From an uncultured Synechococcaceae cyanobacterium (GTDB taxonomy: Bacteria; Cyanobacteriota; Cyanobacteriia; PCC-6307; Cyanobiaceae), in assembly GCA_902574955.1 (NCBI GenBank), contig CACGPQ010000001.1, forward strand, positions 3,706 through 67,705: a stretch of DNA of 64,000 bases, read 5' to 3'. The notes below the pieces were generated by a model. The model searched no databases, had not been told where the DNA came from, and worked only from the letters and a program-made list of their open reading frames with translations. The position numbers and the translations under genes are program-made. Positions 1,996 through 46,765 of this stretch are shown piece after piece (the stretch's first letter is position 1; the number at the start of each line of letters is the position of its first letter).

Positions 1996-2907
1996 TTAAT
2001 TAAATAAATTCATGAACATTTTGTATAGAGGAATTGTAATTATTGAAATTAAAGTTGTAGTAAAAAGAATTTTTGAAGCGATTTTTTGTTTTATACCATA
2101 AGCCTCTGCCATTAATATTGTGGATATTGCTGTTGGGGCTCCTGCCTGAAGAATTAATGCTGATGATTGATAAAAATCAAAATTTAAAGATTTGCATGCT
2201 AAAAAAATAATAAAAGGAAGAATAAATAATTTTAGTAAAATTGAAAATTTAATTTCTTCATTTAGATCCAAAATCCTCCCCTTTTGATTTGTGATTATTC
2301 CAAGTCTTGTTCCCACAATTATTATTGCTAAAGCAATAACTATTCTTGCAGGAATCCAAAGATAATTGCCTAAAAATTCATCTATTTGGAAAAGATATGC
2401 AAGAAGTACACCAATAATTCCTTTCGATGCGGGACTATTTATCAATGCATTTAATAGCCCTTTGATGTTTGGGATGTCATTACGGTTGATTTTTTCCTGA
2501 AGAAAAAATGGTCCAAATATCCAAGCGAAAAGTGTTGTTCCTAAATCAAATCCAATAGTAAAATTTATAGTTTTTAAGGGTAAAATGGCTAGCGCAATTG
2601 GTATTCCAAGAAATGATGTATTACCTATTAGGCCTGCCAGCTGTAATGTGTAATTTGGAAGCCTCTTTTTAAATATTGGAATTATATTTATTAAAGTTAT
2701 TAAAAATCCAATTACAGAGAATGCTAAAAAAGCGCTTTTAATTAGGTTTATATCTATACCTTCTTTTAATAAGAGACCCATTACACTTAATGGAATGCCA
2801 AATCTAATTAGAGGTCTTGCAATATGTTTTGAAATCTTTGGATTCTTTTCCCCGAGAAGAAAACCAAAAATTAAGAAAGGGATGATGTTTATGAAAAGAG
2901 AGTAGAT
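1996..2907 (-). CDS. AEC (auxin efflux carrier) family transporter; true start probably upstream of the ATG at 2781
   Basis: Motifs GNTSFLGIP, KLFILP and APTA. The frame stays open to 2937 and encodes an extra TM segment. Confidence 0.8.
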   Translation of the reverse strand: MYSLFINIIPFLIFGFLLGEKNPKISKHIARPLIRFGIPLSVMGLLLKEGIDINLIKSAFLAFSVIGFLITLINIIPIFKKRLPNYTLQLAGLIGNTSFLGIPIALAILPLKTINFTIGFDLGTTLFAWIFGPFFLQEKINRNDIPNIKGLLNALINSPASKGIIGVLLAYLFQIDEFLGNYLWIPARIVIALAIIIVGTRLGIITNQKGRILDLNEEIKFSILLKLFILPFIIFLACKSLNFDFYQSSALILQAGAPTAISTILMAEAYGIKQKIASKILFTTTLISIITIPLYKMFMNLFN

Positions 2908-2984
2908 GGTATTAATTAAATATTTCTTAAGGCAATCTTAACTTGCCGTAGTGCAGTCAAAAAGTTTTTTTATTCTTTTAGGGT

Positions 2985-3239
2985 TTAAATTATTTTCCAG
3001 ATTGCTTTGTCAGGAATTAGAGGAGATTTGTATAAATTTTCTGGTTCTTTAGTCAAAACTCTCCATGTAGGAACCCGACAAGTTACGTAAGCAGGACTTT
3101 CTATTAAAACTCCTGGTTTCTCATCAAAAGTGCAAACAAAACCTTCTTTCCAATATCCAGAATTATTTAGGCTACCTTTAAACCAAACCCAGCATTTTGA
3201 AGTTTTCAAGATCAACAAATTTTTTTTTATCTTAATCAA
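2985..3239 (-). CDS. Conserved hypothetical protein
   Basis: 84-aa ORF with Trp/Cys motifs (CWVWF, CRVPTWRV). Confidence 0.65.
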   Translation of the reverse strand: MIKIKKNLLILKTSKCWVWFKGSLNNSGYWKEGFVCTFDEKPGVLIESPAYVTCRVPTWRVLTKEPENLYKSPLIPDKAIWKII

Positions 3240-3294
3240 TATTTAAGTAATAAATCTAATATTTATTACTTTGTAGAATAAGTTTTTGTTAATT

Positions 3295-3552
3295 TTAGTT
3301 TTTTGAAAAATATACTTTAGAGATTAATATCAATAGATTTAAGATCAGGGTAATTAAATTTGCTATCAATATTGGTCTAGACGAAATTTTATAACCGTAA
3401 ATAATCCAAGACAAAACACCGATAATAAACATTATTAATGTTGTCAAAGATACATCATCTGCCTTTTTTGTTTTTAAAGTTTTTATCAATTGAGGAAGAA
3501 ATGCCGCTGTTGTTAAAACCGCTGCAAAATATCCGAATATATCTACATTCAT
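3295..3552 (-). CDS. SemiSWEET/PQ-loop family transporter
   Basis: FLPQLIKT PQ motif, three TM helices, 85 aa. Confidence 0.85.
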   Translation of the reverse strand: MNVDIFGYFAAVLTTAAFLPQLIKTLKTKKADDVSLTTLIMFIIGVLSWIIYGYKISSRPILIANLITLILNLLILISKVYFSKN

Positions 3553-40996: not shown

Positions 40997-43900
40997 TTAA
41001 ATAATATCGCTTATAACACTTTCATGTCCTTGACTTGTTAAGTATTCGGTCATTTGAGCTTGGTTTTGATAATTTGCATATTGAATATTGCCATCTGCAT
41101 GCATTAAAGATCTTAGATAAATATCTCCATTATTTGTTTTCCAGTAAACTTCCTGAAAACCATCACCATCAAAATCTCCGGAAGTTTTTACAGTTAGATT
41201 ATCGTTTAATAAATCATTTTGAAATCTTACCTGGCTATTTAAAGCAAGACGATCTTCATTATCGTCATCAAAATCTCCATCGCCATTTAAATCTATATAA
41301 CGATCAGAACCTGTCGCGCCAAATTGAGCTGGGGCAGGAGTAACACCATCTGCAAGATATCCTCCATTTTGTAATCCAACCTCAATTAAAGGGTCATCAT
41401 AAATCCCAACAACTCTTGTCCCACCACCTGCGCCATGATCGGAATAATCTATTTCTCCAGTAACTGAATCTATTTTCCCAGCAGCCCATCTTCCATTCAC
41501 TTTATTTGTAAAAATAGCCTCTAAAACTCCATCATTATTCAAATCTAATTTTCCTTGATACTTATAGGAATTCTTTATCTCATCACTAACAGTTCCAGTA
41601 TTTGCATGAAAATTTCCGTCAAAATCTTTTATACCTTTAAGGTAATAAGCTTCTCCAATAATATGAGAATTGATATTTTCTAAATTCCATATTTCTTTAA
41701 GTGCCTTTAGATCATTCTCTTGATACCAGTTCATCACTTGACCATTAAATTCATCATGCCATCCCATAACAGTTTGAGATCCTACACTTTCTTCTTGCGT
41801 TGAAAAAGCAGTATCACCATCAGAATCATCCCAAGGATGTTCAAGACCAATTAGATGTCCAAGTTCATGAATGAAAACTTTTTTCCATGATTCTTCTGAC
41901 ATGTTTGAAGATGGAATATCACCCGTCATTGTTAAATGAATTGGACTGTTTTCTTGTGAATTCCAAGAACCACTTACTGCATATCCATCTTCAAGATCAT
42001 GAATTAATATCGGTACATCTGCCTCTGCCAATGAATTTACTTCTACAATTTTCAAGGCAAGTTGTTCATCTAATTTGGAAATTGTTTCTCTGATCGCAGA
42101 ATATTGAGAAGCAGTAGGAGTTATTGTTGTTGTATCTACCTGATAGCCCAAAGCACTACTATGAATAGACCAATTATCAGAGCCAGGTGATATGTATAGT
42201 TTGAGTGTGTAGTCATTCCCAATGCCAGATCTTATTTCATTAAGTTCAGTATCTGAGGTTATTAATTGTTGAGTAAGAATATTAATGTCATTTACATCAT
42301 TTACTGTGACAGTAAGAGTTTGATCTGAGGTATTGCTTGCAGCATCTGTTGCTATGACGACAACAACATAAATATTATTTGAATCACTATCAGTTGGTGA
42401 TTCGTAATCTGGTGCAGAAGAAAAAGTTAATGCGCCAGTTGAAGAATTTATTGCAAATAAAGCAGAATCGTCTCCCCCATTTAATGACCAGGTAACAGTT
42501 TCATCAGCAGTAAAAGTATTTACAGTGGAAACATTTTCATTAATGGATACTGATGAAGTGGCATCTCCTTCTGTACCGGAGGGGCCTTTGATTAATGGAT
42601 TAGTATCATCAACATTACTTACAGAAACAGTAAGAGTTTGATCTGAGGTATTGCTTGCAGCATCTGTTGCTATGACGACAACAACATAAATATTATTTGA
42701 ATCACTATCAGTTGGTGATTCGTAATCTGGTGCAGAAGAAAAAGTTAATGCACCAGTTGAAGAATTTATTGCAAATAAAGCAGAATCGTCTCCTCCATTT
42801 AATGACCAGGTAACAGTTTCATCTGTTGTATATGTATGAACTGTTGTTGTATTTTCTGCAATAGATGTGGAACTGGTTGATGAAAGTGTTGGAGCTGTTT
42901 CATCTGCAGTGGTGAAATTATAAGTTGTTTTATCTGTTATTCCTGCATAAGAATTACCATAAAGATCATCAAAAGCAGTTGATGCTATCTGGATGTAAAA
43001 AGTAGTTTGTTCTGCTAAATCACTAGTAGGATTTATGGTGATTGTATTTGTTCCAGTTCCTGTAATTAAGGGGCTGGATGCAACATTAAAAGTTTCTACA
43101 GTAGAATCGTCGGATGATTTATAGATAACAATATTTCCAGTTCCTTTAGCTACTGCTTCTGAGAAAATTAAAACTATATTGCTGCTTGTAGCTATAGAAG
43201 TAGCATCATCAACTGGAGAGGAAGAAAGTAATGTAGGTGGTGTACCTGCGACAGTCGAATTATTAGTGACACTTGTAGAACTTAAAGTTGCAACATCATT
43301 ACCTGCAGCATCCTGGATAGCATTTGCATCATTGCTACCGGAGGGATCTGTATAGGCAACAGTGACAGCCTCATCATTTTTAACTGTTGTTGTAAGAGTT
43401 AGTTCTACCGTAGACCCAGAAACAGTTGCAGCGGTGACGCTATTACTGGAACCACCAGTTGTAACAGCAAAAGCAGAAGTTGCTGCAGTTGTTGCAGATA
43501 AAGCCTCGCTATAAGTAAGGATTACTTTTGTACCGTCACTATTTGTTGCAGCAGAGGAAAATGTTGGGGCAGTACCTGCGACAGTCGAATTATTAGTGAC
43601 ACTTGTAGAACTTAAAGTTGCAACATCATTACCTGCAGCATCCTGGATAGCATTTGCATCATTGCTACCGGAGGGATCTGTATAGGCAACAGTGACAGCC
43701 TCATCATTTTTAACTGTTGTTGTGAGAGTGAGTTCTACCGTAGACCCAGAAACAGTTGCGTCAGTGACACTGTTACTGGAACCACCAGATGTAACTGCGA
43801 AAGCAGAAGTAGCTGCAGTTGTGGAAGATAAAGCCTCGTTATAAGTGAGTATTACTTTTGTGCCGGCAGCATTTGTTGCGGCAGAAGAAAATGTTGGAGC

Positions 43901-46765
43901 AGTACCATCGACTTGAATACTCAATGTATCGCTTGAACTAGAAAAATATTGAGGATAGCCAATATCAATAATTTGCAGACCACTTCCTCCATCAGCTACA
44001 AAAGCGGTCTTACCATCGGCAGAAAGCTTCAGCTTGTAGGCATTGCTTGAAGTGTCGAGATTGCCACTTAGTGTTGGACTTGCAGGATTACTGACATCAA
44101 TAATATCTAGACCGTGAGCACGATCGGCAACAAAAGCAGTATTGCCATCAGCAGAAAGGACAACATCTTCGGCATTTCCTGAGGTGTTGTAAGTTCCTGT
44201 AAGAGAAGGACTTGCAGGATTACTGACATCAATAATATCTAGACCATGACTGTAATCAGCAACAAAAGCAGTATTGCCATCAGCAGAAAGGGTCACCGAA
44301 TAGGCACTTCCTGAGGTGTTGAGAGATCCAGTAAAAGATGGGCTTGCAGGATTGCTGACATCAATAACCTGAAGACCGCCTCCACGGTCAGCTACAAAAG
44401 CAGTATTACCATCAGCAGAAAGGGTAACTGAATTAGCACTTCCTGAGGTGTTGTAAGTTCCTGTAAGAGAAGGGCTAGACAGATTACTGACATCAATAAT
44501 CTGAAGACCGTGAGCACGATCGGCTACAAATGCAGTATTGCCATCAGCAGAAAGGGCAACATCTTCGGCATTCCCTGAGGTGTTGTAAGTTCCTGTAAGA
44601 GAGGGACTTGCAGGATTACTGACATCAATAATCTGAAGACCACTACTATCATCAGCAACAAAAGCAGTATTACCATCGGCAGAAAGGGTTACCCCTCTAG
44701 CAGCTCCTGCGGTGTCGAATGTAGATGTAAGAGAAGGACTTGCAGGATTACTGACATCAATAATCTGCAGACCTGATAAGGAATCCGCAACAAAAGCAGT
44801 ATTGCCATCGGCTGAAATAGTTACGCCAAAGGACCATCCTGAGGTGTCGAGAGATCCAGTAAGAGATGGGCTTGTAGCTACCGATGCATCACCATTAGCG
44901 AATAATTCACTGACATCAATGATATCTAGACCATCAAGGTTATCAGCAACAAAGGCAGTATTACCATCAGCAGAAAGGGTTACACCATAGGCTTTTTCTG
45001 AGGTGTCGTAAGTTGCTGTAAGAGAAGGACTTGCAGGATTGCTGACATCAATGATATCTAGACCATCACTGTAATCAGCAACAAAGGCAGTATTACCATC
45101 AGCAGAAAGTATTACATCATTGGCACTTCCTGAGGTGTCATAAGTTCCTGTAAGAGAAGGGCTAGACAGATTGCTGACATCAATGATATCTATACCGTCA
45201 TCAAGATCGGCAACAAAGGCAGTGTTACCATCAGCAGAAAGGGTAACTGAAACGACATTTAAGGTGCCGTAAGTGCCGTAAGTTGCTGTAAGAGAAGGGC
45301 TTGCAGGATTGCTGACATCAATAATCTGCAGTCCACTGATGCCATCAGCAACAAAGGCAGTGTTTCCATCAGGAGAAAGGGTAACTTTTTGGGCACTATG
45401 TGAGGTGTCGTAAGTTCCTGTAAGAGAAGGGCTAGACAGATTGCTGACATCAATGATATCTAGACCATCAAGGCCATTAACAACAAAGGCAGTGTTTCCA
45501 TCAGCAGAAAGGGTTACATCCATTGCAAAATTTGAGGTGTCGCAAGTTCCTGTAAGAGAAGGGCTAGACAGATTGCTGACATCAAAAATCTGCAGTCCAC
45601 TGGTGCCATCAGCAACAAAGGCAGTGTTTCCATCAGCAGAAAGGGTTACACCATAACTCCCTGCTAAGGAGTTGATAGTTGATGTAAGAGAAGGACTTGC
45701 AGGATTACTGATATCAATAATTTGCAGACCACTTCCTCCATCAGCTACAAAAGCGGTCTTACCATCGGCAGAAAGGGTCAACTTTCTAGCACTTCCTGAG
45801 GTATCGAGAGAGCCAGCAAGAGTTGGTGAGCTGCTGATCGATTTCACTCCATTACGATCCCAGGCTTTGAAAGTGATCAGATCACTAATTGTGCCATCGA
45901 AAGAGGCAGCCGAGTCAAAAGCTAAACGGGTGTTACTGTCGGCATATAGAACACGTGCCGAACTTTCTGAAACAGTTCCGACATCACTCCACGTGTTACC
46001 ATTATCTGTTGAATAGTAGAGAGTTCCACCTCCAAGATTGGTTCCAACGATTGCGATTGCTGCAGAATCTCCATCAGTATCACTGAAATTATTCAGAGTG
46101 CCACCAGAATCAATCAAGTCTGAGACGAGGGTCCCAACAGCCCCTGAAGGAACACCGATATTAGAAGTAGTTATTGTCAGTGCTGGACTTGCAGATGTAT
46201 CAAGGGTGGGACGTGCAGCTTCGATTGCAATTAGTTGACCATTAATATTTAAAGAATGATGATCGTTTTGATCCTTTTCAATATCAGAAACTTCAACCCC
46301 ACGAACTAAAGCTGAAAAAATCGCGCCTTCATCTCCATAAGTATCATCATTTCCGTTGATCTTGTAATCGATTGAATGTCCGAATTCTTCTAGTAGAACA
46401 TCTACGATTTGTTCAGTATTTGCTGATGCAAGAAAATTTTCATTAAGGTAAATAGTCTCTTCACCGTCTTTACCAGAACTGGTATATGCGCCATTAATTT
46501 CTCTTAAGATCTCGTTACTTAATAGTTCAACTTTTATACCTTTAGAGTTATTGAAAATTTGACTAACTAACGAATCAATCCCAGCATCATCAACGTTTTC
46601 ATAAGTCTGATTAATTATTTTTTGATATCGTGCTTTGTCTTCAAAAAACGAATTTAATTTTTCATTAACTATTTCTATAGATGCTAAAAAATTTATTGAT
46701 GTAAACGTTGATAAATATGAATTTTCAAAGACAATCTGCTTCTTCAAATAAGTAATAATTATCAA
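40997..46765 (-). CDS. Giant secreted/surface protein (1922 aa): 14 LVIVD-type repeats, 2 SwmB-like, Ig-like, 2 cadherin-like, metzincin protease and Asp-rich C-terminal domain; start uncertain
   Basis: Repeats are visible in protein and DNA; HELGHLIGLEH zinc motif with Met-turn TVMG; DxNxDG motifs. Confidence 0.88.
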   Translation of the reverse strand: MIIITYLKKQIVFENSYLSTFTSINFLASIEIVNEKLNSFFEDKARYQKIINQTYENVDDAGIDSLVSQIFNNSKGIKVELLSNEILREINGAYTSSGKDGEETIYLNENFLASANTEQIVDVLLEEFGHSIDYKINGNDDTYGDEGAIFSALVRGVEVSDIEKDQNDHHSLNINGQLIAIEAARPTLDTSASPALTITTSNIGVPSGAVGTLVSDLIDSGGTLNNFSDTDGDSAAIAIVGTNLGGGTLYYSTDNGNTWSDVGTVSESSARVLYADSNTRLAFDSAASFDGTISDLITFKAWDRNGVKSISSSPTLAGSLDTSGSARKLTLSADGKTAFVADGGSGLQIIDISNPASPSLTSTINSLAGSYGVTLSADGNTAFVADGTSGLQIFDVSNLSSPSLTGTCDTSNFAMDVTLSADGNTAFVVNGLDGLDIIDVSNLSSPSLTGTYDTSHSAQKVTLSPDGNTAFVADGISGLQIIDVSNPASPSLTATYGTYGTLNVVSVTLSADGNTAFVADLDDGIDIIDVSNLSSPSLTGTYDTSGSANDVILSADGNTAFVADYSDGLDIIDVSNPASPSLTATYDTSEKAYGVTLSADGNTAFVADNLDGLDIIDVSELFANGDASVATSPSLTGSLDTSGWSFGVTISADGNTAFVADSLSGLQIIDVSNPASPSLTSTFDTAGAARGVTLSADGNTAFVADDSSGLQIIDVSNPASPSLTGTYNTSGNAEDVALSADGNTAFVADRAHGLQIIDVSNLSSPSLTGTYNTSGSANSVTLSADGNTAFVADRGGGLQVIDVSNPASPSFTGSLNTSGSAYSVTLSADGNTAFVADYSHGLDIIDVSNPASPSLTGTYNTSGNAEDVVLSADGNTAFVADRAHGLDIIDVSNPASPTLSGNLDTSSNAYKLKLSADGKTAFVADGGSGLQIIDIGYPQYFSSSSDTLSIQVDGTAPTFSSAATNAAGTKVILTYNEALSSTTAATSAFAVTSGGSSNSVTDATVSGSTVELTLTTTVKNDEAVTVAYTDPSGSNDANAIQDAAGNDVATLSSTSVTNNSTVAGTAPTFSSAATNSDGTKVILTYSEALSATTAATSAFAVTTGGSSNSVTAATVSGSTVELTLTTTVKNDEAVTVAYTDPSGSNDANAIQDAAGNDVATLSSTSVTNNSTVAGTPPTLLSSSPVDDATSIATSSNIVLIFSEAVAKGTGNIVIYKSSDDSTVETFNVASSPLITGTGTNTITINPTSDLAEQTTFYIQIASTAFDDLYGNSYAGITDKTTYNFTTADETAPTLSSTSSTSIAENTTTVHTYTTDETVTWSLNGGDDSALFAINSSTGALTFSSAPDYESPTDSDSNNIYVVVVIATDAASNTSDQTLTVSVSNVDDTNPLIKGPSGTEGDATSSVSINENVSTVNTFTADETVTWSLNGGDDSALFAINSSTGALTFSSAPDYESPTDSDSNNIYVVVVIATDAASNTSDQTLTVTVNDVNDINILTQQLITSDTELNEIRSGIGNDYTLKLYISPGSDNWSIHSSALGYQVDTTTITPTASQYSAIRETISKLDEQLALKIVEVNSLAEADVPILIHDLEDGYAVSGSWNSQENSPIHLTMTGDIPSSNMSEESWKKVFIHELGHLIGLEHPWDDSDGDTAFSTQEESVGSQTVMGWHDEFNGQVMNWYQENDLKALKEIWNLENINSHIIGEAYYLKGIKDFDGNFHANTGTVSDEIKNSYKYQGKLDLNNDGVLEAIFTNKVNGRWAAGKIDSVTGEIDYSDHGAGGGTRVVGIYDDPLIEVGLQNGGYLADGVTPAPAQFGATGSDRYIDLNGDGDFDDDNEDRLALNSQVRFQNDLLNDNLTVKTSGDFDGDGFQEVYWKTNNGDIYLRSLMHADGNIQYANYQNQAQMTEYLTSQGHESVISDII
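42290..42890 (-). repeat. Two cadherin-like repeats, 318-nt offset
   Basis: Near-identical ...APDYESPTDSDSNNIYVVVV... blocks. Confidence 0.9.
43242..43905 (-). repeat. Two SwmB-like repeats, 330-nt unit
   Basis: APTFSSAATN...VILTYxEAL...VAYTDP...IQDAAGND duplicated. Confidence 0.85.
43960..45830 (-). repeat. 14 LVIVD-type repeats of about 126 nt, arranged 7+7
   Basis: Unit VTLSADGNTAFVADxxxGLxIIDVSNPASPSL, with a linker after repeat 7. Confidence 0.92.

Follow-up and report, generated by a model that had tools for sequence, protein, structure and literature searches.

Repeat shuffling combined with hypervariable residues on one face of the fold has already been described, both for the fungal WD40 arrays of the HNWD group (PMC2873952) and for the highly repetitive propellers of the Pereira and Lupas survey, which sets a criterion of a median blade identity above 60% over consecutive blades (PMC9218822). 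The LVIVD family was defined in 2004 in Methanosarcina, among archaeal and bacterial cell-surface proteins (PMC2447325), and LVIVD repeats have been modeled as a propeller (PMC8078820). Here, we describe an array of 14 LVIVD repeats within a giant minus-strand gene of an uncultured Synechococcaceae cyanobacterium, located in a 64,000-nucleotide (nt) stretch of contig CACGPQ010000001.1 (assembly GCA_902574955.1) that we refer to as the window. A first-pass annotation had read this array as a twin propeller in which intragenic recombination generates a combinatorial, antibody-like binding face, and had proposed it as an undescribed diversification system. We consider it very probable that the array forms two consecutive seven-bladed LVIVD propellers which act as the module for ligand binding in a giant surface or secreted protein that is rare and specific to one strain of a high-light Prochlorococcus, and which have diversified by ordinary repeat evolution.

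Set beside the described systems, the array has a median blade identity of 0.66 over 14 consecutive blades and the twin 7+7 layout seen among highly repetitive propellers (PMC9218822). It differs from them in lineage, being LVIVD rather than WD40, and in age: the proportion of synonymous differences (pS) between blade cores is 0.39, equivalent to a synonymous divergence (dS) of ~0.55, and there has been no recent single-blade amplification. The parallel to the HNWD genes het-d, het-e as well as het-r of Podospora anserina (PMC2873952; PMC12222747) is one of principle; a constant scaffold, variable residues that by topology should share a face, and exchange between repeats recur here, as does an array more polymorphic than its flanks, the last judged from a single second allele. 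However, the repeats described here share ~71% DNA identity with a longest common run of 65 nt, whereas HNWD repeats are near-identical, and the N-terminus is made of a SprT-like region and an unnamed domain instead of a STAND/NLR architecture, with no match to NACHT or NB-ARC. The targets of diversity-generating retroelements differ again, in that neither a reverse transcriptase nor a template repeat was found in the 60.5%-complete host genome. Within the LVIVD family, the 44-residue (aa) period compares with tandem units of 42–44 aa, and the four-stranded blades and the setting in a huge multi-domain protein, here putatively of the surface type, are shared; the fusion to SWM, cadherin and metzincin-like domains and to a picocyanobacterial C-terminal module sets this array apart.

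Results

Architecture of the array and position of the variable sites

Repeat units were anchored on the invariant TAFV motif, which recurs at successive spacings of 44, 44, 44, 46, 44, 44, 53, 44, 44, 44, 44, 44 and 44 aa. The array thus comprises seven plus seven units of 44 aa with a 9-aa insert after repeat 7 (residues 315–943), in keeping with the 14 repeats and linker proposed earlier; Tandem Repeats Finder sees 12.8 copies of a 132-nt period. A profile search identified the repeats as LVIVD (PF08309; 417.6 bits against a cut-off of 20.2, E 2.5e-128, 13 stretches). AlphaFold2, run on a 25-sequence alignment, returned two seven-bladed propellers with four strands per repeat at a mean predicted local distance difference test (pLDDT) score of 91.2, the linker being disordered at model residues 308–315. 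The best Foldseek matches are themselves tandem 7+7 propellers, namely 2ymu (a ‘highly repetitive propeller’ and the closest match), Aip1 (1nr0) and Pwp2 (5i2t), and the twin seven-blade fold anticipated by the first-pass annotation is borne out. Two plus-strand open reading frames (ORFs) inside the array (44712–44990 and 45672–46016) were taken as by-products of the repeats.

Read from the first blade to the fourteenth, the residues following FVAD or FVVN are GGS, GTS, GLD, GIS, LDD, YSD, NLD, SLS, DSS, RAH, RGG, YSH, RAH and GGS. This loop is exactly three residues long in all 14 blades, and its triplets, like those preceding VTLS, read as had been listed. Seven of the 44 alignment columns (8, 9, 11, 12 and 27–29) hold ~41% of the summed column entropy (a hand sum). 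Median inter-blade identity is 0.14 at these columns and 0.76 at the other 37, which agrees with the description of a nearly fixed framework varying at two sites.

In the AlphaFold2 model, the strands of each unit follow in the order SLTGTY, AxxVTL, TAFVAD and GLQIID. The first variable site covers the end of the first loop (DTSGx) and the opening residues of strand two; the second is the three-residue third loop after FVAD. Because alternate loops of an up-down meander lie on one face, both variable sites should share a face, and the conserved SADGN and VSNPASP loops should occupy the opposite one. The assignment is topological, drawn from strand order and not from model coordinates, and it is at this level that the one-face placement proposed earlier holds. 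Columns 29 and 32 co-vary, S being paired with Q in six blades, D with D in four and H with D in two, a pattern that suggests structural coupling or a metal site in some blades; the DGLD and SGLQ blade types occur in Synechococcus homologs as well.

Selection on the framework and exchange between repeats

Comparison of core codons between blades yielded a pS of 0.39 (dS ~0.55) and a proportion of nonsynonymous differences (pN) of 0.08, with a dN/dS ratio of 0.15. Because synonymous divergence between the repeats is large, the framework is kept by purifying selection acting on an old divergence; recent copying does not account for it. Loop codons are near saturation with a pN of 0.62, and the nominal ratio of 1.9 at the first variable site is unreliable; loop dN reaches 1.3 against a framework dS of 0.55. 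Mean DNA identity between repeats is ~71%. That propeller 2 is a recent copy of propeller 1 was ruled out by the identity of repeat i to repeat i+7, ~73% as compared to ~71% for all pairs. The rise in GC content to 44% falls at codon positions 1 and 2 and stems from a Gly/Ala/Ser/Asp/Thr-rich composition; recent import from a GC-rich donor as its cause was ruled out by a third-position GC content (GC3) of 0.27 against 0.20–0.22 in core genes.

Superimposed on this old divergence are traces of exchange. Repeats 1 and 14, for which ~64 shared nucleotides had been noted, are identical over an exact run of 65 nt, the longest between any two repeats, whereas immediately beyond its two ends they agree at only 42/102 and 33/93 positions (35–41%). 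The run has sharp edges and includes several synonymous variants that are absent from every other blade; it is most likely a gene-conversion tract. The recurrence of AED together with RAH in repeats 10 and 13 was likewise found, the two repeats being 88% identical in DNA. The LQ/LD and NPAS/NLSS haplotypes, ~20 nt apart, occur in all four combinations, as expected from the independent reassortment reported earlier; LD comprises two to three linked changes and NLSS five. A pairwise homoplasy index (PHI) test gave p≤0.001 for short windows. In a set of five homologs, the nearest neighbor of a repeat belongs to the same protein in 54–59% of cases. The expected share is 19%, and none of 2000 shuffles exceeded 44%; such an excess is the signature of concerted evolution. 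Recombination between repeats has thus taken place. The earlier proposal of intragenic recombination as generator of the variation is upheld by the exchange tracts, the haplotype combinations and the short-window PHI results; it is not upheld for a dedicated machinery.

Such machinery was sought in the host genome, an assembly of 1.0 Mb in 64 contigs that is 60.5% complete. The assembly contains no RVT_1 match, and none of the ten neighboring ORFs scanned matches a reverse transcriptase; the genes nearby are of ordinary kinds. All 13 LVIVD matches in the genome fall inside the ORF described here and none outside it. Retroelement-driven diversification was ruled out by the lack, in this partial assembly, of an RVT_1 match and of a template copy, and silent donor cassettes were ruled out for the assembled 60.5% of the genome, with 13 of 13 LVIVD matches accounted for by the ORF. 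We found nothing indicating somatic or programmed change, and the term ‘antibody-like’ is not supported.

Comparison with a syntenic allele

Our allele comparison is based on one allele, L035, a 3453-bp metagenome contig from JGI (GC 35%) on which the dienelactone hydrolase gene is succeeded by the beginning of the giant gene described here. Over the hydrolase and the N-terminal 314 codons, L035 and the window are 87–97% identical in DNA (pS 0.19–0.23). The flanks overall are ~92% identical, and the N-terminal 314 aa are 92% identical in protein (pS 0.23, pN 0.04). Identity drops to ~70% exactly at the start of the array and is regained only at the linker (39/42 nt). Positional blade pairs have a core pS of 0.40, compared with a paralog mean of 0.39 and a flank value of 0.23 (bootstrap P 0.0002), and the long exact matches between the alleles lie off the diagonal, the repeat 6/7 junction and the linker being the exceptions. 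From this alignment, blade-by-blade correspondence between the two alleles appears to be lost. L035 has six repeats ahead of the linker (nt 2447–3451) versus seven here, which means either that repeat number truly varies or that the repeats collapsed during assembly. The difference between the arrays as a whole may be due to array turnover since the alleles split, to replacement by recombination, or to a chimeric or collapsed contig.

Homologs and distribution

Thousands of database proteins align across all 14 repeats. The highest array identities belong to an ENA metagenome protein (P0006, 67%) and to giant proteins of Synechococcus sp. MIT S9504 (P0019/P0020, 64%; P0087, 61%); a search of 5.8 billion proteins, covering both the long and the short length class, gave no allele above 67% identity. 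P0006, P0019, P0087 and a fourth homolog, P0011, each possess 14 repeats, with a spacing of 52–55 aa after repeat 7. The MIT S9504 giants and P0006 share with the present protein a SprT-like region, a pre-propeller domain, the order of seven repeats, linker and seven repeats, a similar linker, and LQ and LD blades; they differ in their C-terminal modules and in loop contents, which are unrelated. Blade-by-blade orthology with the Synechococcus and metagenome homologs was looked for and not found, the best matches being consensus-like blades.

The most variable columns, averaged over 12 homologs, are 11, 9, 28 and 27, and the consensus of 25 proteins reads x at the same variable sites; both the LQ and the LD blade types are found in Synechococcus proteins. 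A fixed scaffold with two variable loops is thus a general property of LVIVD propellers and nothing special to this gene. The earlier designation as an undescribed diversification system cannot be retained, as the repeats belong to a known family whose homologs vary at the same two sites. P0006 contains runs of identical consecutive blades with the same loops, and every one of its 14 blades has lysine at column 20. Recent duplication or conversion of blades is therefore ongoing in this subfamily.

A search of 200 further genomes of the genus turned up no copy of the propeller (1/201 with the host genome included) and just two weak matches to the N-terminal part. GTDB species representatives contained no close allele. 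Because, among the genomes searched, the propeller is confined to the host genome while the C-terminal module recurs in 17 of the 200 others, the gene is a rare, mosaic accessory gene.

Gene context and domain organization

The array is embedded in an ORF that remains open over 1922 codons (Table 1). Its domains follow in the order SprT-like N-terminus, unnamed pre-propeller domain, 14 LVIVD repeats, two SWM repeats, Big_5, two cadherin domains, a metzincin-like domain with the motif HELGHLIGLEH, and an Asp-rich, FG-GAP-like C-terminal module. NCBIfam matches are choice-of-anchor B and swm_rep_I. SWM, Big_5 and cadherin are adhesin-type domains and an HlyD-like gene lies 1.4 kb away; export of the protein is a prediction. 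One flank holds dxr, cysS, polA, the HlyD-like gene and ychF, and the other a dienelactone hydrolase, a high-light-inducible-type protein and others.

Table 1 Features of the giant gene and its LVIVD array, in window coordinates
Feature	Position	Strand	Remarks
Giant modular protein, whole ORF (1922 aa)	40997..46765	-	putative surface or secreted type, by domains
N-terminal 314 aa	45824..46765	-	SprT-like region, then unnamed ~125-aa domain
Unnamed ~125-aa domain	45824..46198	-	residues ~190–314
LVIVD array	43937..45823	-	
Propeller 1, LVIVD repeats 1–7	44912..45823	-	four predicted strands per repeat
Repeat-1 tract, 65 nt	45711..45775	-	identical to repeat-14 tract; encodes LSADGKTAFVADGGSGLQIID
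Inter-propeller linker	44867..44911	-	ELFANGDASVATSP and neighbors; low pLDDT; length kept in four homologs
Propeller 2, LVIVD repeats 8–14	43937..44866	-	
Repeat-14 tract, 65 nt	43962..44026	-	identical to repeat-1 tract
Two 330-nt SWM/SwmB-type repeats	43242..43906	-	93% matches; directly following the propellers
Metzincin-like domain and C-terminal module	41000..42268	-	
FG-GAP-like C-terminal module (~225 aa)	40997..41680	-	

The unnamed domain has no Pfam match at E<0.05. It sits immediately ahead of the LVIVD propellers in the present protein as well as in P0006, P0019, P0087 and P0011, and in two further proteins, P0033 and P0095, it occurs once ahead of each propeller module. The pair of SWM-type repeats is much younger than the LVIVD blades. 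The C-terminal module is common to proteins of 230–3002 aa, with 12 matches in the host genome (including G000:C24, G000:C60 and G000:C1:69261-69926), and the other genomes of the genus that carry it often do so in many copies arranged as paralog clusters; it has the look of a widely shared unit for export or anchoring whose passengers can be swapped. Together with the metzincin-like domain, it forms a stand-alone 427-aa ORF of 76–77% identity in two other genomes of the genus (loci L026, G138:C6, and L027, G104:C21). Because this pair stands alone in two genomes, the giant gene looks like a fusion between an adhesin-type N-terminal part and a smaller gene for the metzincin and C-terminal module.

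Discussion

The model that we favor, in which ordinary repeat evolution acts on a ligand-binding module, runs as follows. The giant gene lies between core genes and an accessory region, and each 44-aa repeat makes up one four-stranded blade. Strong purifying selection holds the strands and the SADGN and VSNPASP loops. The remaining two loops, which should lie on the other face, are free to vary or selected to vary; each propeller would then show a ring of 14 variable patches as its likely binding face. Occasional gene conversion or unequal crossing-over, at a rate that we infer, shifts scaffold and loop segments among blade positions, and this blade exchange wipes out positional orthology between alleles. 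In this model the array evolves by tandem-repeat dynamics of the ordinary kind, with no dedicated mutator or cassette system involved.

Several observations weigh against this model. The PHI test is not significant on third codon positions alone (p 0.09–0.66), and part of the short-window signal may therefore come from linked changes within codons. With the loops saturated at a pN of ~0.62, positive selection is indistinguishable from lack of constraint. The sole allele available for comparison comes from a short metagenome contig, and its repeats could be a chimera or have collapsed in assembly. At a genome completeness of 60.5%, the lack of a reverse transcriptase and of donor cassettes cannot be taken as proven. 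Finally, no LVIVD propeller has a known ligand, and a binding role for the variable face is one that we infer.

One alternative, which we regard as rather unlikely, is that the array is a population hot spot where blade shuffling, loop replacement and diversifying selection on the loops produce many alleles of a two-ring binding face among co-occurring Prochlorococcus, with little change in the remainder of the gene. Such an array, set at an island edge, would be to bacteria what the HNWD arrays are to fungi, and would perhaps be tied to interactions with phage, grazers or particles. Between the two alleles, the array is indeed far more diverged than its flanks, positional orthology is gone, and repeat number before the linker may differ (six versus seven). 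Loop dN (1.3) exceeds framework dS (0.55), and the lowest paralog core pS in the array, 0.06, is below the 0.23 of the allele flanks, so that some exchanges are younger than the allele split. However, repeats with ~71% DNA identity and a dS of ~0.55 are far from the near-identical repeats that destabilize HNWD arrays, dN/dS is unreliable for saturated loops, only two alleles are at hand and the metagenome contig may be chimeric, and a propeller present in 1 of 201 genomes of the genus leaves little population in which to diversify.

Saturation of the loops (pN 0.62) is also what neutral sites of old repeats would display and, along with the lack of a known ligand, it would fit neutral drift of unconstrained surface loops on propellers that act as a structural spacer, the variable face having no binding role. 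We judge this distinctly improbable: the same two sites are variable in distant homologs while the other two loops are strongly conserved, an asymmetry between faces that is typical of binding propellers, and the third loop keeps its three-residue length in 14 of 14 blades. Barely credible, in our assessment, is a mosaic produced by short-read assembly of single-cell or metagenome data, or loops written by a dedicated hypermutation system such as a diversity-generating retroelement. Assembly of repeats is difficult and the present assembly is fragmented and 60.5% complete, but the ORF is open for 1922 codons, no identical run between repeats is longer than 65 nt, and the assembled order is exactly seven repeats, linker and seven repeats, as in four independent homologs, folding at a pLDDT of 91. 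A retroelement is opposed by the lack, in the assembled genome, of an RVT_1 match and of an LVIVD copy outside the ORF to act as template, and by variation that is spread over 14 blades rather than focused on one variable repeat with a template.

The striking repeat array now has a family name and a fold. What is new is the allele comparison, in which flanks that are ~92% identical enclose an array without blade correspondence. At present, the array amounts to an unexceptional instance of a repeat protein under concerted evolution; if the pattern is true in more alleles, this rare surface protein would offer a tractable case for cell-surface variability in the most abundant marine phototroph.

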